Assembly (NCBI GenBank): GCA_018238155.1
Contig: JABCTZ010000045.1
Location: forward strand, 36,452-100,451
Direction of reading: 5' to 3'
DNA length: 64,000 bases
DNA from: Candidatus Heimdallarchaeota archaeon
Lineage (GTDB): Archaea; Asgardarchaeota; Heimdallarchaeia; JABLTI01
Part shown: piece after piece, positions 43,565-60,100 of the stretch
How the letters are laid out: every line of letters starts with the position of its first letter
How positions within the stretch are numbered: the stretch's first letter is position 1
Notes under the pieces: generated by a model
The model's input: the letters and a program-made list of their open reading frames with translations, nothing else
Told to the model about the DNA's origin: nothing
The model's database searches: none
Position numbers and translations under genes: made by a program

Positions 43565-44761
43565 ATGGATGATTTATTAGAAAAAGAATTGAGAAAACCA
43601 TCTCTCATAAAAAATCCGAGGGTATTAGATTTAAAATATATACCCAAGAAACTTTTACATAGAGAAGAAGAACAAAAAATGCTAATCCAATATTTCAAAC
43701 CGGTAATTGAAAAACCCGGGGAGTATTCTCAAAGAGTTTCCATTATTGGTGCTATTGGTACGGGTAAAACAGCAATAGCCTTAAAATTCGGTGAAATGAT
43801 AAAAGTATATTCAACTCAAAAGAATCTAAATTTGGAATATGTTCACGTCAATTGTAGAAGAGCAAGATCAGCATTTCTAACACTTCTTGAAATTGTAAGG
43901 AAATTTAATCCACATATTCCTGTAAGAGGGTTTTCTCCAGAAGAAATCCTCAATATGCTGACAGAAATTCTAAATCGTAAAAAACTCTATCTTATCGTAA
44001 CTTTGGATGAAATTGATTTTGTCATACGAAAAGATGGACCAAATTTGCTTTATGATCTAACAAGGTTGACAGATGATGAGTTAGATATGAAAGAAAGAGT
44101 ATCAATAATTACAATTGTAAGAGATTTTGCTTTCAGAACAATGCTTGACGAAAGTACATTGAGTACTCTACGACAAAATACTATTTTCTTAAAAGCATAT
44201 AATGAAGACCAATTAAGTGATATAATATCAGATAGAGTAGGAGAAGCATTTTATGAAGATTCAGTCTCAAATGATGCTATCAGTTTAATTGCCGATATTG
44301 CCTCAAAGAATGGTGATGCACGATTTGCAATTGAATTATTAGAACGTGCTGGAATGTATGCAGACCATAGACAATCACTAAAAGTTTTACCAGAACATGT
44401 AAGACATGCAAATGCATCTATTCATCCTGTAATTAGACAAGAAATTATAAAAGATTTAACAACTCAACAAAAACTAACTCTACTTGCTATTGCAGCAAAA
44501 TTGAGAACAACTCAGAAAGCCTACTTAACAATGGGAGAATTAGAAGAAACTTACAAAGGATTATGTGAGGAATTCAATCTACCGATTCGTAGTCATACCC
44601 AAGTATGGGAATATATCCAATATTTACAAAATTGTGATGTTATTACAACAAGGCTTAGCAGTAAGGGGCAAAGAGGCCAAACAACCTTAATTAGTTTACC
44701 TGATGTTTCAGCTGAAATAATTGAAACTACTATTAGAGAACAATTTCATAAGAAAGGATAA
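43565..44761 (+). CDS. cdc6: Orc1/Cdc6 replication initiator (chromosomal copy)
   Basis: GAIGTGKT, LDEID, GDARFAI, wing motif GQRGQT. Confidence 0.96.
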   Translation: MDDLLEKELRKPSLIKNPRVLDLKYIPKKLLHREEEQKMLIQYFKPVIEKPGEYSQRVSIIGAIGTGKTAIALKFGEMIKVYSTQKNLNLEYVHVNCRRARSAFLTLLEIVRKFNPHIPVRGFSPEEILNMLTEILNRKKLYLIVTLDEIDFVIRKDGPNLLYDLTRLTDDELDMKERVSIITIVRDFAFRTMLDESTLSTLRQNTIFLKAYNEDQLSDIISDRVGEAFYEDSVSNDAISLIADIASKNGDARFAIELLERAGMYADHRQSLKVLPEHVRHANASIHPVIRQEIIKDLTTQQKLTLLAIAAKLRTTQKAYLTMGELEETYKGLCEEFNLPIRSHTQVWEYIQYLQNCDVITTRLSSKGQRGQTTLISLPDVSAEIIETTIREQFHKKG

Positions 44762-51973: not shown

Positions 51974-53029
51974 TTAAAATAGCATAGGAAAACGATATTC
52001 TTGTTCTTCTATATCTTCAATTTTTGGTGGAGATAATTCTTTCACTTTTTCCTTGAATATTTCTTTTAAGACTGTTCTATGGTGATCTCTAATAGAATAT
52101 TCTGCTACATTGCAAATATTGGCTAGTGATTTTTGAGTTAAAATTTGCCTATGCCCTCCAACTTTCCCAATGATTCTATCTGCACAATAAACCACAGAAA
52201 CAGCAAAAATATAGGGGTTTCTCCCTCCTCTTGTTTTCAAAGAGGTTTCGGCTAATATCTCTCGAGACAGTTGAAGAAGCTTTTGTTCATAAGCTAGTTT
52301 TTCTAATTCAATATTAGATAATCTTGGGTGAATGTCATTTTCCTCAACTATAGAGGATACTATTCTTTGTAAGTAGTCTTCACTCTTTCGAATTCTGAGA
52401 GAGATACCTAATTCTACAGGTAAATTTTGAGCAAGCTTCACAATAGATTTGCCACTTACACGATGTCCCAAATCTTTGAAAATTGAGATTATTTCACTGA
52501 GTCTTATTGGAGCATTAGATGCAGATTCACGAATTGAAACCATTAAACATAGTGCTACTAATACGATGTGATTTGAAATCTTCTCAATTTTATTTGCACT
52601 TTCAGCACTAACAACTACTTTGTAAAGATAAGCAGCACGTTTCTTAACACCATCAGATATATCTAGGAATGCAGCAACTCGATTCAAACTCATTAACGAT
52701 CTATAATCAGTTTCATGATTGCCGATTTTTATACGGAGATTATATCTTCTCTTCAATTTTCTAAATTTGTATTGACCTTTTGAAGAAAGTGTAGTTCCTT
52801 TTCCATCATGAAAATAACCATCATTGTGATAACCAATATAGCTACCAAGTCCGTCTACAATATGAACTCTTTTTCCTGGAGCAAGCTCCTGATTCCAAGG
52901 TATTTGAGAACTTCCATTCTCTGTTAAGAAAGCAATACTATTCACTGCTCCACATTCAACACAAACGAATTCCCCTCTTGTCTGTACAAGAGTACCATTA
53001 CAAACATTACAAATTCTGTCTTCTACCAA
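51974..53029 (-). CDS. tfb: divergent transcription factor B (TFIIB) paralog
   Basis: CNVC...VCVECGAV Zn ribbon, two cyclin folds, GRNPY, TQKSLA...VAEYSIR; TTG start at 53029 inferred. Confidence 0.85.
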   Translation of the reverse strand: MVEDRICNVCNGTLVQTRGEFVCVECGAVNSIAFLTENGSSQIPWNQELAPGKRVHIVDGLGSYIGYHNDGYFHDGKGTTLSSKGQYKFRKLKRRYNLRIKIGNHETDYRSLMSLNRVAAFLDISDGVKKRAAYLYKVVVSAESANKIEKISNHIVLVALCLMVSIRESASNAPIRLSEIISIFKDLGHRVSGKSIVKLAQNLPVELGISLRIRKSEDYLQRIVSSIVEENDIHPRLSNIELEKLAYEQKLLQLSREILAETSLKTRGGRNPYIFAVSVVYCADRIIGKVGGHRQILTQKSLANICNVAEYSIRDHHRTVLKEIFKEKVKELSPPKIEDIEEQEYRFPMLF

Positions 53030-53442
53030 ATCAGAACACCAAGACAAGAATTGTGATAAATAATCTTTTAGATTTTGAAGTTTAAAATGATGATAAATAG
53101 TATAGTTTATACTATACACATGATAACGATCTTGATTAAAAATACATGAATACCCTATAAAGTGGGGAAGGTCGCCGAAAGTATTCAAAATAGTTGTTGG
53201 GTCAGCAAAAAAAGTAGGTCATAGCATTTAGAATGCTCACCCAAATGCCTTTCCATCATTCCCAACAGACTAAAGTTGTTTCTAGATGGTTAATAATTTT
53301 ATTATGTGATTTTAATTATTCAGCAATTCTATTTGTAGAATTCACCTTAAATAAACAGTTAAATGCATTTTTCCAAAAAAATTATTCAGTCGGTTATAAG
53401 AAATGTTTTTTAAATTAAAGGCAAAAAGCAAATAAAAACATT

Positions 53443-53637
53443 TCATGGATTCAATCCTTGTAATTTTTCAGATACATCTTGAAAAATATCTTGTGTAAAA
53501 CCTAAGATATCAGTTACAATTGAAACTAAAAGTACAAAAGCAAACAATGCCAATCCAATTAGGATGCCTTCCTCAATTAAAGGAGATGCTTTTTTGTTTT
53601 TTGCGATTTTTCTTAGTCCAAGTAAATCTTTTTTCAT
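53443..53637 (-). CDS. Flp-like type IV pilin (class III signal peptide), 64 aa
   Basis: MKKDLLGLRKIAKNKKA|SPLIEEGILIGLALFAFVLLV; E at +5; GAGG SD. Confidence 0.75.
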   Translation of the reverse strand: MKKDLLGLRKIAKNKKASPLIEEGILIGLALFAFVLLVSIVTDILGFTQDIFQDVSEKLQGLNP

Positions 53638-53707
53638 AAAAAATTCCTCAAAATTAAATATTGTTTTACTATTAAAAACACCACATATATTATAAAAATT
53701 AATTTGA

Positions 53708-53782
53708 TGCCCCGACCGGGATTTGAACCCGAGTCTACAACTCGAGAGGCTGTAATGATTGACCGAACTACACCATCGGGGC
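53708..53782 (-). tRNA. tRNA-Glu (anticodon CTC)
   Basis: GCCCCGA/TCGGGGC acceptor stem, ACAGC-CTCTCGA-GTTGT anticodon arm, GGTTCAAATCC T arm. Confidence 0.96.
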
Positions 53783-53885
53783 AAATTTAAACTAGGCGTT
53801 TTTTATTCAACGTTTTCTAGAATTTAATTTAAGAATAAATGAGTTTCTATTATTGTGTAAAAAAAAGTTGAATGGGATATTACAA

Positions 53886-54485
53886 TTATTCTGATAATCT
53901 AGCTTCCCAATCAAGTATTTTTTCAGATAAACCGATCTTTTCTTTTGGAGGAAAATCGTTTTCACCCTTTCTGATAAAACTGTTTCCTATACGTCTAATT
54001 TCATAGAAAACTCTACTAAATGAAAAGCTGGTTTCAATTTGCTCTAATGCTTCAATAAGAGTCTCACCTACTTGTTTAAAATTAGTAGATTCATTCATTT
54101 TCTGAAATAAATCTATGAAAATTGGGTGTTGTGGACTTCCTGTATGTGAAGGTTGTATAGAGGGTTCCGATGCTTGTTGAGGTGCTTTGGCGGGAGGTTG
54201 CTCTTTCTTTGTAACTTGCTCCTTTTTAGAAGGTTTCTCTTTTGCCACAGGAGTGAATACTTTGGTAGATTGAGTTTTTGATATATTAGTAGATAAAACA
54301 TCAAATTTCTTCGTTAAATCATTTAATTGTGAACTAATATTTGTAAAACCAGTACCAAGACCATCTATTGATGGTACAATTACTTCTATAGATTTTCTAA
54401 TAGCAGCAATATTTGAATTCAATTCGTTTAATTGTTCAATCATTTTATTAAAAGTTGTGAGAAAAATATCATCTTCAGTAGACAT
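53886..54485 (-). CDS. hypothetical coiled-coil / P-rich linker / helical-domain protein
   Basis: 199-aa ORF divergent from the AAA+ ATPase. Confidence 0.7.
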   Translation of the reverse strand: MSTEDDIFLTTFNKMIEQLNELNSNIAAIRKSIEVIVPSIDGLGTGFTNISSQLNDLTKKFDVLSTNISKTQSTKVFTPVAKEKPSKKEQVTKKEQPPAKAPQQASEPSIQPSHTGSPQHPIFIDLFQKMNESTNFKQVGETLIEALEQIETSFSFSRVFYEIRRIGNSFIRKGENDFPPKEKIGLSEKILDWEARLSE

Positions 54486-54698
54486 TAAATCAACTCATAT
54501 GTACTTAAAGTTAAGTTATTAGAATAAATAATATCTTTTGCTTTTTAAAATATTAGATTCTGACAGTAAAAATATCCAATTCTATAATATGTGAATATAA
54601 ATTAAGCCCTATTAACCGACACTTTTTTATCGAAATAGCAAACATATGAATCATATCAGTGTATAATACGAAATACTTGTATTACAGAGGGCGAAACA

Positions 54699-55655
54699 AT
54701 GGTTAATATGAAAAGTAAAGCATCTCCATTTGTGAAACATTTTGAAGCGAGAAAGGAAATATTGAATATTTGGATTAAAAAGATGGGCTATAAAAGAAAT
54801 CCATTTCTTGGTTTTACTTTACCAAATCCAGAATTATTGGTAGAAATGCCAGATTTTCTTGAATCTCTAGTTGATATTATTGTTGCAAACGAAAGACCAG
54901 CTATTTTTTTAAGAGGACCAGTTGGAGTTGGGAAATCAACACACTTAATTCTAATTAGAAGAGATATTAAAGATTTACAAGATTTAAGTGGGAATTCGTT
55001 CAGAACAGCATATATAGATAGATCAGGTTTACATGCTAGACAATTCGCTAGGTTATGTGCTATAGGATTCAATGTTAAATTCAATAAAACAGATGACTCT
55101 GATGAAATAATGGATGCAGTTGGGAAAGACATAAAAATGAAATATTCAGAAGACCAAATAAGATCCGTACTTCTTGCAGAAGATATAAGTGAAAACCAAC
55201 ATGAAATCTTCAGTAAACTACAATATCTAGCAGATCTTAATGCAGAAGCAACAGAAGAACCAATTGCTACAATTTTAATGACAGGAACAACTGAATATTT
55301 TCAAGCATTAGCTGCAGTACTTCCTCAAATTGCAGATAGATGTGAACCGATAGATGTTCCTAAATTTGAATTGAAACATTCTAGGGAATTCATTGGACGA
55401 AGAATATCATATGCAAAGAAAGAAATCTCAAGTTTCGACCTAGATAATTTTTCCATTAAACCTTTTGATGATAATGCTGTACGAATATTACATGAGAGTT
55501 CACAAGGCATTCCAAGAGATTTAAGATTGTTATGTAGAGCAGCAATTAGTTTGGCTTCAGACACACTTTCTAGGAAAGAAAGTGAAGGTGAAATTAATGT
55601 CGAAATGGCACGAATGATTTCTAATCACTATAAACAATTCTTAACAGAAGTATAA
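54699..55655 (+). CDS. AAA+ ATPase of the ExeA/TniB/Cdc6-related type
   Basis: GYKRNPF, Walker A GPVGVGKS, atypical Walker B LLAED, PQIADR, SQGIPRDL. Confidence 0.8.
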   Translation: MVNMKSKASPFVKHFEARKEILNIWIKKMGYKRNPFLGFTLPNPELLVEMPDFLESLVDIIVANERPAIFLRGPVGVGKSTHLILIRRDIKDLQDLSGNSFRTAYIDRSGLHARQFARLCAIGFNVKFNKTDDSDEIMDAVGKDIKMKYSEDQIRSVLLAEDISENQHEIFSKLQYLADLNAEATEEPIATILMTGTTEYFQALAAVLPQIADRCEPIDVPKFELKHSREFIGRRISYAKKEISSFDLDNFSIKPFDDNAVRILHESSQGIPRDLRLLCRAAISLASDTLSRKESEGEINVEMARMISNHYKQFLTEV

Positions 55656-55714
55656 TATTTCAAGCAATATTTATATTTCAAGTAATACAAGTAATAAATC
55701 AAGTATTAATTAAG

Positions 55715-56053
55715 GTGGAAGAAATGAGCTTATTACAAAAATATAGAAAAGAAGAAACAAGAAAGACTACACCTGAAGAAGAAAAACGAACACCAATTAA
55801 AAAAGTAGAAACGAAGGAACGCCCAATAGCTCCAAAAGAAAACATAAAGAAAGCCAAAAAAATTCCTAAAGAGAAAACACCAGGTGTTCGAAGTAGACCA
55901 GTAATTTCAGCAACGGTTAGTATAGAATTAGTAAATGCTTTAAATGTTTTAACAGAGGAAAAATATTTGAACAGATCCAAATTCATTGAAGATGCATTAA
56001 TTAGAACCATTAAAACTGAATTTCCAGATATTGCTAAAAGATATTCCTTCTAA
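55715..56053 (+). CDS. RHH DNA-binding protein with a long K/E-rich N-terminal tail
   Basis: RPVISATVSIELVNALNVL...NRSKFIEDAL. Confidence 0.8.
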   Translation: MEEMSLLQKYRKEETRKTTPEEEKRTPIKKVETKERPIAPKENIKKAKKIPKEKTPGVRSRPVISATVSIELVNALNVLTEEKYLNRSKFIEDALIRTIKTEFPDIAKRYSF

Positions 56054-57164
56054 TACTAATAATACTTGTATTAGAAATATTGCTTGTAATAGTCATATTA
56101 TATGTAATACATCTAATACATAAACATAGCAATATAATTGAAATAGAAAGTATTAACGAAAAGATTCTTTAATATTTATTCAAAATTCTAGTTACAATTT
56201 TCTATATAATAATATATAGGTACTTATGAAAGATAATCCATATTACAAGTATTACTTATAATACAAGTGTTTTTTGAGATAGATCATTGAATTAACCTGG
56301 AAAAAGAAAATAGGTATTTTATTAATAGTGGGATAAAGAGAGTTATTTATAATGTAAGATAAATATTACCTGAAATAGTTATATTTCTAGTAACATAAGT
56401 AATACAAATAATACATAATGTGGCGGTTTATGAGACTTCATTGTATAAAACAATGGTAATTAATTAAATGTACTTAAAAGCATCTGCGAGATACTAGAAA
56501 AATCCCAGGTTAACAATTATATTTCATTTAGACTACAATAAATATCATCAATAATAGTTAAAGCAAGATAATTGTATTGAAAGTATATTGCTTGTAATAC
56601 AAGTAATATAAGTATAACGTGTTCAAAATAAATACTATAAAATATCAAATTAGAACACGCTCTGTTAATATAGATAGCACATCATTAGAAACACTAATAT
56701 GAAAAGTCCTTCACAAACATAAATTAGCTTTTTGAACAAACAAAATTAGGTATTACAAATATAAATTAGATTTCACAAGTGAAAATCATCTTTCCCAATT
56801 TAGGAAGTAGGTATTTTCCAATAATAATGAAAGAAACTTTGACTAAGTATTAGTTTAAAGGATCGTTTGATTTTAAACTAAAATATTAACAGGTGATTGC
56901 TAAATTTCATGAATAACCAAATGGAGAAATTGATTTAAGTAATTCAAGTATTACTTATATTACATAGCATTCTCAGTTTTACTGTTTTCTTGATGAAAAA
57001 CTGTAAAAAGAGATAGAAATACAGTGTTAGATGAGAGAGGAAATTTGTAACGAATTTTAGTAAATATATCAAAATATTAGACGATTTGTGAGTAGAACGC
57101 ATGTTTCTTAAACAAAGTATATATAGCAGTTTTAGTCGTATAATATTGTATACCAGGTGATATT

Positions 57165-57665
57165 ATGTCAAGCAAAGAAATTCATTTAATTAAGAAACGA
57201 TTACGAGAAACGATGTCAAATCCTATTATTAGTCTTTTTTATTCGAAGGAAGAAAAAAGCGGAAAAGGATCTAAAGAATGGACTAATTTAACAAAAATCC
57301 AACTAGAAACGTTGATTATTGATATTATAACAGATGAAATTAACCCTAATCTCGGATATTTAGAACGAGGTAAGGTCAGAGGAGTAACTAAAAGAGCGTT
57401 TTATAGAACATTAGAACAAGCTAGATTAAATTTGATACGAGCAATGTTTACAATTATGATATCAGGAGTATTAAACATTATAGATTCTCCGAGGTTATCA
57501 GATTTTAATGCTTTATCGCAAAATTTTGTTGATCTAATAAACATAAATAACCAAACGAATCAAACTCCTGAAGATAAAGAAAAATGGATAAAACTCTATA
57601 CAAAAATGATTTTTGAGAATACACAAAATCTGAAAAAACAAACTGCATTATCAAAACCTAAGTAA
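57165..57665 (+). CDS. HTH-like hypothetical protein
   Basis: LTKIQLETLIID...RGVTKRAFYRTLEQAR; AGGTGA SD. Confidence 0.7.
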   Translation: MSSKEIHLIKKRLRETMSNPIISLFYSKEEKSGKGSKEWTNLTKIQLETLIIDIITDEINPNLGYLERGKVRGVTKRAFYRTLEQARLNLIRAMFTIMISGVLNIIDSPRLSDFNALSQNFVDLININNQTNQTPEDKEKWIKLYTKMIFENTQNLKKQTALSKPK

Positions 57666-57709
57666 TAAGAATAATATATGAAATATAAGTAATACAAGTA
57701 TTTCATACA

Positions 57710-60100
57710 TTATTGCTTGTTTTTTAAAGCAGACACTATTGCTTGACCACAGCTAATAGCCCCATCACCACAAGGTAAATTTTTGTGTTCAATAAATTCT
57801 AAATTAGCCTCCTTTACTTTTTTAGCAATATGGGAAGTAATAAAGTGATTATATGCTACACCACCAGTAATTCCAATTTTTCTAATATTATTTTCCTTTG
57901 CATAATTTATGGACGCTTCAGCATATTGATTTGCTAGCTCATAATGAGCTGCCAAAGCAATGTCATAAGGATTTTTACCTTGACTAAAGAATTCATATGA
58001 TTGAAGAATTAAAGGCGTTGTAAAGATAATATTGTCACTAGGTGAAGGAATTTTAAACTTAATTTTATCTCTTGTTCCTAATTTAGCAAAAGATTCTAAT
58101 TTTATTGCAGGTTCTCCTTCATATGTTCTCTCTGAACAGAAACCAAGTAGTGAACTCAAAGAAGCCAATATTCTTCCAGTACTAGTTGTTTCGTAAAGAT
58201 TTAGTTTCTTTTCGAGTTGTACAAGTAATACTTGTATTTCAACAGAACGCCCTGGAAAACTATCAAGGTATTTATTTTCAAGTATTTTCCTCAAGTTTTC
58301 ATGATCCATAACCTTAGACAAAATACCAGCAAACATTCTAATTGGGTAATATGTTGCACGATCCCCACCAATCATTATTTGTTCTTCGAGGTGGAAAATT
58401 CTCTCGAAACTAGTATAGCTAGTATGTAGGATTTCTCCTCCCCATATTTTCCCATCATCACCATAACCAACTCCATCAGCGACGATTGCAACTATTTCAT
58501 CTGCTAATGATAATTTATTATCTATCATTAATGCTACTGCATGAGCATGATGATGTTGAATTTGAAACAAGTTACTGTTAAATTTTGAAGCATATTCTTT
58601 TGCTAATGCAGTTGATAAAAAGTTTGGATGCAAATCACAGCCAATAGAAGTATAATTACTAACTCCTAAAAGATGAGATAAATGTTCTATAGATGATTTC
58701 AAGAAATCTAAAGTTTCAAGAGTATTGACATTACCTATATGCTGTGTTAGGAAACATCGATTCTTATATGCAATTGCACCAGTTGATGTTAGAAGAGGAC
58801 CTACGCCCAATGATTGCTCGTTCTTCAAATCGAAAGGCAGGTTAATAGGTTCTGGAACCCATCCTCTGGATCGTCTAATTAAAACAGGATTATTGTTTGT
58901 TATTCTTATAACACTATCATCAGCGCGTTGGAATATTTCTCTGTTATGTAATAGGAAGAAATCTGCTAAATCAGCTGTATTTGATAGAATCTTTTCGTTT
59001 TCAACATACATTGGAATATCAGAAGGATTTGCACTGGTTAGTATAATTGCTGAATCAGAGATTTCCTCTAGAATCAATGAATGTATGCCTGAATAAGGAA
59101 GCATAACACCAACATTGAATAGATCTGGGGAAATCCATTTTGATAAGATAAAAGGATTTTTCTTTTTTAGTAAAACTATTGGTTTTCGATAACTTGTAAG
59201 TATTTGTTTTTCAATATTTTCTATTTCTGCATATTTCTTGATATCAGTAATAGATTTTGAAATTAAAGCAAATGGTTTATACTTTCTCTTTCCTTTCTTA
59301 GTTCGAAGTCTAAGAATAACTTCATCATCTGTAGCAGAACAAGCTAAATGGGTTCCTCCAATTCCTTTTATTGCTACTATTTTACCTCTTCGAATTTGTT
59401 TTGCTGTTTCTTTTATCATATTCACACATTCAACAGCTTTTCCGTCTTTATCATATAATGACATGGATGGACCACATAGAGAACAACAAGTCGTTTGTGC
59501 ATGATGTCGTCTATCTAAAGGATTGTTATACTCTATTCTGCATGAATCACATAATGGAAAGGCAACCATTGTGGTATGTGGACGATCATAAGGCAATTTG
59601 GTAATAGTTGAATATCTAGGCCCACAAATTACACAAGATGTAAAAGGATAATTATTTCTAGTACTATTAGGATTTTTCATATCATTCAAACAATCTGTAC
59701 AAATCGATATATCAGGTGGAAGATAAGAAATACCTCCAGCTTTGGTTTCAGAACTTTTTAGTATGGAAAAATTGTTGAACTCATTTTTACATCTCTCCCA
59801 TTCAATTTGAAAATCTTCATATTTGGCTAAATGAGGTTTTTTTTCTTGTAAATCATTTACAAATGATTCTAAGTCAACTTTTGACCCTTCTGCAATAATT
59901 ATAACACCAGCATCACCCTGATTTCGTACAAATCCCACAAGTTTATGATTTATAGCAATTCTATAAACAAATGGTCTGAAACCAATGCCTTGAACTATTC
60001 CTCTACAAGCTATTCTAACTCGAAAAATCAATCGTAAATCCTCAGGAAAGAGTTTATTTAATTGGATAGTATATTTTTCTTTCGTTAAATACACTACCAT
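57710..60100 (-). CDS. hypF: carbamoyltransferase HypF (true start probably TTG ~60031)
   Basis: GIVQGIGFRPF, CGPRY, KGIGG, QHHHAH, DGVGYG, GGVAYN, GDGAIS. Confidence 0.96.
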   Translation of the reverse strand: MVVYLTKEKYTIQLNKLFPEDLRLIFRVRIACRGIVQGIGFRPFVYRIAINHKLVGFVRNQGDAGVIIIAEGSKVDLESFVNDLQEKKPHLAKYEDFQIEWERCKNEFNNFSILKSSETKAGGISYLPPDISICTDCLNDMKNPNSTRNNYPFTSCVICGPRYSTITKLPYDRPHTTMVAFPLCDSCRIEYNNPLDRRHHAQTTCCSLCGPSMSLYDKDGKAVECVNMIKETAKQIRRGKIVAIKGIGGTHLACSATDDEVILRLRTKKGKRKYKPFALISKSITDIKKYAEIENIEKQILTSYRKPIVLLKKKNPFILSKWISPDLFNVGVMLPYSGIHSLILEEISDSAIILTSANPSDIPMYVENEKILSNTADLADFFLLHNREIFQRADDSVIRITNNNPVLIRRSRGWVPEPINLPFDLKNEQSLGVGPLLTSTGAIAYKNRCFLTQHIGNVNTLETLDFLKSSIEHLSHLLGVSNYTSIGCDLHPNFLSTALAKEYASKFNSNLFQIQHHHAHAVALMIDNKLSLADEIVAIVADGVGYGDDGKIWGGEILHTSYTSFERIFHLEEQIMIGGDRATYYPIRMFAGILSKVMDHENLRKILENKYLDSFPGRSVEIQVLLVQLEKKLNLYETTSTGRILASLSSLLGFCSERTYEGEPAIKLESFAKLGTRDKIKFKIPSPSDNIIFTTPLILQSYEFFSQGKNPYDIALAAHYELANQYAEASINYAKENNIRKIGITGGVAYNHFITSHIAKKVKEANLEFIEHKNLPCGDGAISCGQAIVSALKNKQ

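Follow-up and report, generated by a model that had tools for sequence, protein, structure and literature searches.

An AAA+ ATPase, a predicted ribbon-helix-helix protein and phased palindromic arrays form a conserved module near orc1/cdc6 in Asgard archaea

A 64,000-nucleotide (nt) stretch of DNA from Candidatus Heimdallarchaeota archaeon (contig JABCTZ010000045.1, positions 36,452 to 100,451; hereafter the window, in whose own numbering coordinates are given) contains a module of three genes embedded in a field of short palindromes. The genes encode an AAA+ ATPase, a small, predicted ribbon-helix-helix (RHH) protein and a protein of 166 amino acids (aa), p166. The palindromes are heptamers, arranged with a fixed period in nine arrays that are private to this locus in the host genome and that recur, between genes as well as inside them, in related archaea. 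We tentatively read the module as an Asgard-specific, origin-linked nucleoprotein field in the style of SegAB and of the type Ib partition cassettes, with an AAA+ protein in place of ParA. A literature search found no published description of this module.

Nine phased arrays of a palindromic heptamer are confined to one locus

A preliminary description of this DNA had reported a motif recurring about eight times around the ATPase and RHH genes and as far as the 3' side of p166. The recurrence holds, although the count and the unit had to be revised. Comparing the copies side by side reduces the repeat to the palindromic heptamer GTAWTAC with a period of 9 bp; since the unit is palindromic, the motif is seen in both orientations. 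Under relaxed scoring the units group into nine phased arrays of three to nine units each, 42 heptamers in all, in place of single copies. Arrays are found at both promoters, at the RHH stop codon, in the gap that follows (four arrays), 3' of the third gene and within hypF (one array). The field thus includes the 3' side of p166, as described, and ends farther out, with array 9 in hypF (58216-58240).

The clustering anticipated for a genome-wide count was borne out. At up to two mismatches, the 14-mer GTAATACAAGTAWT has 26 matches in the window against 2.5 expected, and 20 of the 26 fall within 54672-58240. When the whole host assembly (4.08 Mb in 46 contigs, 32% GC) was scanned, all four exact copies of the 14-mer were at this locus, as were 11 of 12 two-unit matches (at most one mismatch in all) and 12 of 12 three-unit matches (at most three mismatches in all). 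The locus holding these matches measures 3.6 kb (window 54.6-58.3 kb). Genes and arrays are as follows, with the strand given for the genes:

54661-54685, array 1: 3 units, about 30 nt 3' of a TATA-like element and 14 nt 5' of the AAA+ start codon
54699-55655, plus strand, AAA+ ATPase: 318 aa, ORC/Cdc6/TnsC-like fold with base and lid, without winged helix
55655-55697, array 2: 5 units, overlapping the TATA-like box TTTATATT in the 68-nt spacer between the AAA+ and RHH genes
55724-56053, plus strand, RHH protein: 109 aa, N-terminal peptide MSLLQKYRKEETR, variable basic linker, C-terminal RHH
56041-56119, array 3: 9 consecutive units across the RHH stop codon
56240-56264, array 4: 3 units
56354-56414, array 5: 7 units
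56585-56618, array 6: 4 units
56939-56963, array 7: 3 units
57165-57665, plus strand, p166: all-alpha protein with a helix-turn-helix (HTH) signature of the sigma-region-4/DUF134 kind (LT..QLETL ... GVTKRAFYRTLEQAR)
57662-57704, array 8: 5 units, in the convergent p166/hypF spacer
58216-58240, array 9: 3 units, in the hypF coding sequence

The arrays keep their positions in relatives and are under selection inside genes

The gene order p199, AAA+, RHH, gap (1100-1150 bp), p166, hypF is the same in five genomes of the host genus; the locus of a sixth ends before the gap. Proteins in these genomes are 50-90% identical, and the places of the arrays are constant across all six even though the sequence of the gap has diverged. 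Array 1 is kept in all six genomes and its position is also occupied in Thorarchaeota; array 9 is intact in three of the six and partial in the other three. Linkage of the genes and conservation of the motif, on which the preliminary description had made its proposal depend, are therefore both seen in relatives: array positions are the same across species, gene order is kept in the genus, and an AAA+ gene followed by an RHH gene occurs in all six Asgard lineages examined.

The ATPase family is carried by 69 of 76 genomes of the Thorarchaeota-type family and by 7 of 9 other genomes of the host genus searched, with one copy per genome; three other families have more distant homologues. The Thorarchaeota ATPase gene is separated by 3 nt from the gene for a 95-aa RHH homologue (31% identity), and the p166 homologue lies 3 kb off, adjoining hypF. 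The sequence GTATTACaaGCAGTACatGTGATAC, found 5' of the Thorarchaeota ATPase gene, is the same box in the same phase. On a complete Thorarchaeota chromosome nearly all two-unit matches are within a single 12-kb stretch, which holds nine arrays, five of them inside genes. Sixteen genomes of this family, representing 15 genera, have arrays in the same spacers and over the same codons of ACS, p409, HypF and POR-gamma, and almost every spacer of the field holds an array.

Constraint on the intragenic arrays was measured by a motif-blind sliding scan of third-codon-position conservation; no columns were picked by motif, which avoids circularity. Array windows rank first in each gene tested: the array window scores 0.90 in ACS (next-best window, 0.70) and 0.85 in p409 (next-best, 0.59), and the two array windows of HypF score 0.80 and 0.79 (next-best, 0.63). 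Control genes without arrays peak at 0.69. Selection thus acts on the boxes as DNA, in coding sequence and outside it alike. The 1.1-kb gap, on the other hand, is particular to the host genus, and Thorarchaeota have the system without it: the corresponding gap measures only 87 nt in the complete genome, and such gaps as exist in this family are not notably AT-rich.

The ATPase resembles ORC/Cdc6 in its predicted fold

The ATPase has a classical Walker A motif, GPVGVGKST, rather than the deviant type of ParA, SopA and MinD, and its sensor 2 reads GIPRD (GxPRD across the family). Mean column identity in an alignment of 22 homologues is 72%. The only Pfam match of the protein is AAA_22 (PF13401), at 20.7 bits, below the gathering cut-off of 27. 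Some family members pass this cut-off, and P0155 (306 aa), which represents a distant branch, reaches 52.8 bits; the ATPase therefore belongs to a divergent branch of the AAA_22 superfamily. The family is small: an exhaustive profile search of 1.84 billion representatives yielded about 16 clusters at E≤1e-10, many of them fragments. Its nearest sequence relatives from outside are AAA_22 proteins of the ExeA and TniB type.

An AlphaFold model (predicted local distance difference test score, 83.6) consists of an AAA+ base and a lid; nothing follows the lid, and a pair of helices separates strand 2 from strand 3, as it does in the initiator clade. Top Foldseek matches are A. pernix ORC2, S. solfataricus Cdc6/Orc1 and eukaryotic ORC/Cdc6 (probability 1.00, template-modelling score ~0.55), and TnsC is also among them; identity in these structural alignments is only ~10-14%. 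The ATPase has no Pfam match to Cdc6_C or Cdc6_lid, the protein ending with the lid at residue 318, and its profile gives P-loop-level matches at most against PDB sequences. Judged by the modelled fold, the ATPase counts as an initiator-clade AAA+ module. Its earlier designation as ExeA/Cdc6-like is in keeping with both the structural matches and the AAA_22 proteins as nearest sequence relatives.

The RHH protein carries a conserved N-terminal peptide

We place the RHH start at ATG 55724, not at GTG 55715, because the N-terminus MSLLQKYRK is kept in all orthologues. In their alignment the N-terminal peptide is invariant, the basic linker after it varies, and a strand-helix-helix makes up the C-terminal part, an arrangement that agrees with the tailed RHH gene of the preliminary description. 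Prediction of an ATPase-RHH complex from two alignments returned a score of 0.00, which is evidence neither way.

The third conserved component, p166, gave no Pfam match at E up to 0.1 with the window protein, and its predicted fold gave no PDB match at E up to 0.001. One orthologue has a precomputed match to PF02001 (named UPF0251 in some sources). In one genome of the host genus (G001, L010:3584-4084) the p166 gene contains an in-frame stop (…FTIMI*GVLN…) and is otherwise 93% identical; the stop could be a sequencing error or the mark of a recent pseudogene.

The module lies close to orc1/cdc6 in every lineage checked

The AAA+, RHH and p166 genes occur together in at least five lineages. 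Three families (f23, f12 and f8) have a block made of orc1/cdc6, a gap, the AAA+ homologue, an RHH-type protein of 117-160 aa and a p166 homologue. In f23 and f12, whose locus open reading frames (ORFs) were read, DP1 (the small subunit of PolD) precedes orc1; hypF follows on the 3' side of the block in these two, and the f8 locus has no hypF match. The repeat in the three families is another palindrome, GATATC, at a spacing of ~13 bp, whose boxes occupy the spacer separating the ATPase gene from the RHH gene as well as the DNA 5' of the former and 3' of the latter. In f23 they are also found on either side of orc1 and fill the ~3-kb gap. In f12, clusters of a further palindrome, GTTAAC, some at 10-13-bp spacing, are found by orc1/cdc6 (L060:11835-12189 and L062:7905-8323), separate from the GATATC boxes at the AAA+ and RHH promoters. 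These clusters may be true origin boxes or sites of a neighbouring winged-helix-like protein.

Overall, 3-36 kb separate the module from orc1/cdc6: ~10 kb in five genomes of the host genus, 3-5 kb in f23, f12 and f8, and ~35 kb in the complete Thorarchaeota genome and in four of five others (in the fifth, the two are on different contigs). GC skew along the complete Thorarchaeota chromosome, sampled in 41 stretches, mostly of 20 kb, is noisy and dominated by local effects; a weak plus-to-minus trend near 1.65-1.8 Mb is unusable for placing the origin.

Promoters, gap and neighbouring genes

Further features of the window are:

43565-44761, plus strand: Orc1/Cdc6 paralogue, Cdc6_C score 80.7 bits, ~10 kb from the module
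54615-54629, plus strand: TATA-like element ACCGACACTTTTTTA, predicted promoter of the AAA+ gene, invariant in six genomes of the genus
56054-57164: AT-rich, ORF-free gap of 1111 bp, GC 23.6%
56202-56219: conserved 18-bp near-palindrome CTATATAATAATATATAG, followed by GGTAC, ~20 nt 5' of array 4
57110-57154, plus strand: putative p166 promoter and leader, AAACA..TATA and then AGTCGTATAATATTGTATACC, conserved

Array 1 follows ACCGACACTTTTTTA at about 30 nt and array 2 abuts the TATA-like box TTTATATT, so that both lie over predicted transcription start regions. The Thorarchaeota counterpart of ACCGACACTTTTTTA is caccggaccacttatta (L016:7923-7939), at the same distance from the first array; such likeness across classes is unusual conservation for a predicted promoter. 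The sequence GACAYTTT occurs again 5' of p166 (~57080).

The 1.1-kb AT-rich gap and its flanking genes are present where the preliminary description had placed them. Among the ORF-free stretches of the assembly the gap is the fourth-longest, and it is the most AT-rich of the top thirteen. Four relatives have a perfect version (CTATATAATATTATATAG) of the near-palindrome within it, for which candidate roles are a TATA-like element, an unwinding element or a site for another protein. Comparison of window positions 53000-58500 with Rfam gave tRNA-Glu as the sole match, leaving the gap without an RNA family match. A 113-aa ORF on the minus strand (53443-53784) overlaps this tRNA-Glu (53706-53783), and its 5' end is probably spurious. 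The window also encodes HypF, UvrC, a TFB and a pilus ATPase of the Tad-like kind, and database relatives of its proteins carry Heimdallarchaeota or Asgard labels. Near the module, the window flanks and the Thorarchaeota loci examined showed no mobile genes such as integrases or transposases.

Two observations concern the p409/p186 spacer of the Thorarchaeota-type family. In one genome (G065) this spacer is 1.2 kb long and includes a GC-rich, structured-looking stretch unlike its surroundings (L065:7374-7800), which may be an RNA gene. A near-palindrome, GTTCTA(G/A)GATTAGAAC, is common to two such spacers (L065:8006-8021 and L071:7807-7822) and is distinct from GTAWTAC.

Discussion

In the arrangement that we favour, RHH dimers would bind side by side on the 9-bp-phased GTAWTAC palindromes, and the nine arrays of the window (12-17 over ~12 kb in Thorarchaeota) would form one large complex, marking a single chromosomal site near orc1/cdc6. 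Autoregulation would result from the arrays placed where transcription of the ATPase and RHH genes begins. The ATPase, which has no DNA-reading domain of its own, would be recruited or switched by the RHH protein, probably through contact with the conserved N-terminal peptide on its flexible basic linker, and its ATP cycle would position, hold or organise the region at division. p166 would act as a third conserved partner of the DNA-binding type. The choice of the box-reading protein is suggested by the geometry of the boxes. That an ORC/Cdc6-like AAA+ protein actually takes the place of ParA, actin or tubulin in a segregation or origin-positioning machine, with the tailed RHH adaptor, seated on kilobases of phased palindromes by the replication origin, as its switch, is a bolder proposition, which we regard as doubtful.

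We prefer the centromere-like reading because the constrained boxes spread over kilobases, into genes and convergent spacers. Such a spread fits dispersed centromere sites better than it fits origin iterons or operators, and promoter control does not explain sites placed in convergent spacers and inside genes. The structural kinship of the ATPase with ORC/Cdc6 and TnsC, proteins that work as oligomers on DNA, and the fact that the GATATC lineages keep the same relative box places also speak for this reading.

The closest parallel is the SegAB system of Sulfolobales, in which SegA is a ParA-type ATPase and SegB an RHH protein whose unstructured N-terminus stimulates SegA; on DNA, multiple SegB dimers form a superhelix that resembles chromatin (PMC8682754). 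There is a single occurrence of the phased segS repeat, next to the segAB operon (PMC12139799). As in that system, the module described here has a chromosomal two-gene operon, an ATPase gene and then one for a small, predicted RHH protein tailed at its N-terminus, and adjoins a short repeat of fixed short period that is unique in the chromosome. It differs in the class of its ATPase (AAA+, not ParA-type), in the larger repeat field (nine arrays here, ~12 kb in Thorarchaeota) and in having p166 as a third conserved gene.

Type Ib cassettes, such as ParF-ParG of TP228 and delta-omega of pSM19035, likewise combine an NTPase with a tailed RHH centromere-binding protein, and their short-repeat arrays serve at the same time as operators for the promoter of the cassette itself. 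The palindromic heptamers of the window may be compared with the 7-bp units bound by omega, which come in direct as well as inverted order. The module shares with these cassettes the layout of an ATPase and a tailed, predicted RHH protein and the short-repeat arrays at its own promoters; unlike them, it has an AAA+ fold without a deviant Walker A, is chromosomal, lies near orc1/cdc6 and has sites inside genes. Archaeal Orc1/Cdc6 proteins match the ATPase in AAA+ base and lid, and the module is linked to their gene. The ATPase departs from them in being 318 aa long without a C-terminal winged helix, in its Walker B (ED) and in its low identity (~10-14%), and a separate RHH protein would read the DNA. 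Finally, AAA_22 proteins (ExeA/GspA, TniB) are the nearest relatives by sequence, and TnsC is among the top structural matches. ATPases of the TnsC/MuB type form DNA-bound oligomers, and their ATPase activity is switched by a partner's peptide. Unlike ExeA, the protein described here has no peptidoglycan-binding or membrane domain; unlike TnsC, TniB, MuB and IstB, it has no transposase or TniQ nearby and sits in a conserved housekeeping context.

The most serious alternative, which we judge only somewhat less likely, is a replication-origin module, in which the array field (here with the AT-rich 1.1-kb gap) is itself an origin or adjoins one. The RHH protein would read the sequence and the winged-helix-less ORC/Cdc6-like ATPase would act; beside Orc1/Cdc6, the two would regulate the origin, load helicase or serve as a split accessory initiator. 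Both the structural matches and the two helices between strands 2 and 3 point this way, as does the proximity to orc1/cdc6 in every lineage checked, with orc1, gap and AAA+ gene in one block in three families. The rank of the gap in length and AT content, the lack of any sizeable non-coding stretch beside the orc1 gene at 43565, and the GATATC arrays that flank orc1 and fill the ~3-kb gap in f23 can be added to these points. Set against them, the boxes of Thorarchaeota extend over ~12 kb, many in housekeeping genes or convergent spacers, unlike origin iterons or origin recognition boxes (ORB), and the boxes do not seem to resemble ORB elements. Some Thorarchaeota genomes have no long gap, and in others it is not notably AT-rich; GC skew on their complete chromosome is too noisy to place an origin; and in f12 the occurrence of GTTAAC by orc1, apart from GATATC, hints that origin sites and RHH sites are separate. 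The preliminary description had proposed a segregation cassette or an origin: the private motif, the linkage and the conserved arrays stand, and we lean only tentatively towards the first.

It is improbable that the arrays serve a local transcription circuit only, with RHH and/or p166 as repressors that tune the ATPase operon and its neighbours and with an ATPase whose job is unrelated. RHH proteins and HTH proteins of the sigma-region-4-like kind are commonly regulators, both the AAA+ and the RHH gene have arrays across their predicted start regions, and nearly all spacers of the Thorarchaeota field carry an array. Yet arrays are also present in terminator-side spacers and in coding sequences, where selection at synonymous sites holds them; nine to seventeen arrays for one small operon far exceed the need of autoregulation; and strict pairing with so highly conserved an ATPase in six lineages argues for a joint machine. 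Still less probable in our estimation is that a plasmid or virus integrated long ago left a maintenance module that was domesticated and kept, either as a remnant or as a second, captured origin or centromere. The patchy distribution among Asgard families would fit, and a search of a plasmid collection with the ATPase returned a single, weak match, on a circular, virus-like 58-kb plasmid of the haloarchaeon Natronosalvus rutilus (NZ_CP100358.1), which has a tail tube gene and no annotated ParA. The match is an AAA_22-like ATPase (L079:7575-8438; 21% identity over 89% of the query, E 5e-5) followed by the gene for a 70-aa Arc-like RHH protein (L080:33-245), both among the few plus-strand genes. 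No repeat arrays were found around this pair, which could be a parallel ATPase-RHH maintenance pair in haloarchaea. The match is at the general AAA_22 family level only, no relative of the ATPase was found in a viral contig collection, and the module itself is present at one copy per genome, with housekeeping flanks, synteny conserved across families and no mobile genes nearby.

Several points weigh against the centromere-like reading. We know of no segregation system driven by an AAA+ ATPase, so that the motor step is without precedent, and the Walker B motif, which is ED rather than DE in 22 of 22 aligned members, may be better suited to a slow switch than to a motor. Pfam RHH_1 matches were obtained for seven of nine orthologues, all weak or sub-threshold (best E 2e-4), and the RHH profile found no match among the sequences of solved structures. 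Covariation gave no clue to the box reader, because the GTAWTAC and GATATC systems differ in the RHH strand as well as in the putative recognition helix of p166. At least four ParA/MinD-superfamily genes exceed the Pfam cut-off in the host genome, which thus has conventional candidates; an argument for segregation from the absence of ParA was accordingly rejected. None of the genomes searched in several large Asgard families yielded a member of the ATPase family (0 of 68, 0 of 29 and 0 of 21), and the system is therefore not a general Asgard solution. Lastly, a role in replication would account just as well for the ORC-like fold, for the vicinity of orc1/cdc6 and polD and for the long AT-rich gap.

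Asgard archaea are the closest relatives that eukaryotes are known to have among prokaryotes, and to our knowledge the organisation and segregation of their chromosomes have not been described. A conserved three-gene module with a sharply defined DNA target makes the question directly testable. If an ORC-like ATPase were the working NTPase of a centromere-like complex, partition motors would extend beyond ParA, actin and tubulin to a further NTPase class, drawn from the same ATPase lineage that marks archaeal and eukaryotic origins, and origin-recognition-type ATPases would be tied to chromosome handling. Were the module an origin accessory instead, it would amount to a split initiator, in which an RHH protein reads and an AAA+ protein acts, next to canonical Orc1/Cdc6. 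Under either reading, intragenic boxes kept by synonymous-site selection constitute a second code written over housekeeping genes.

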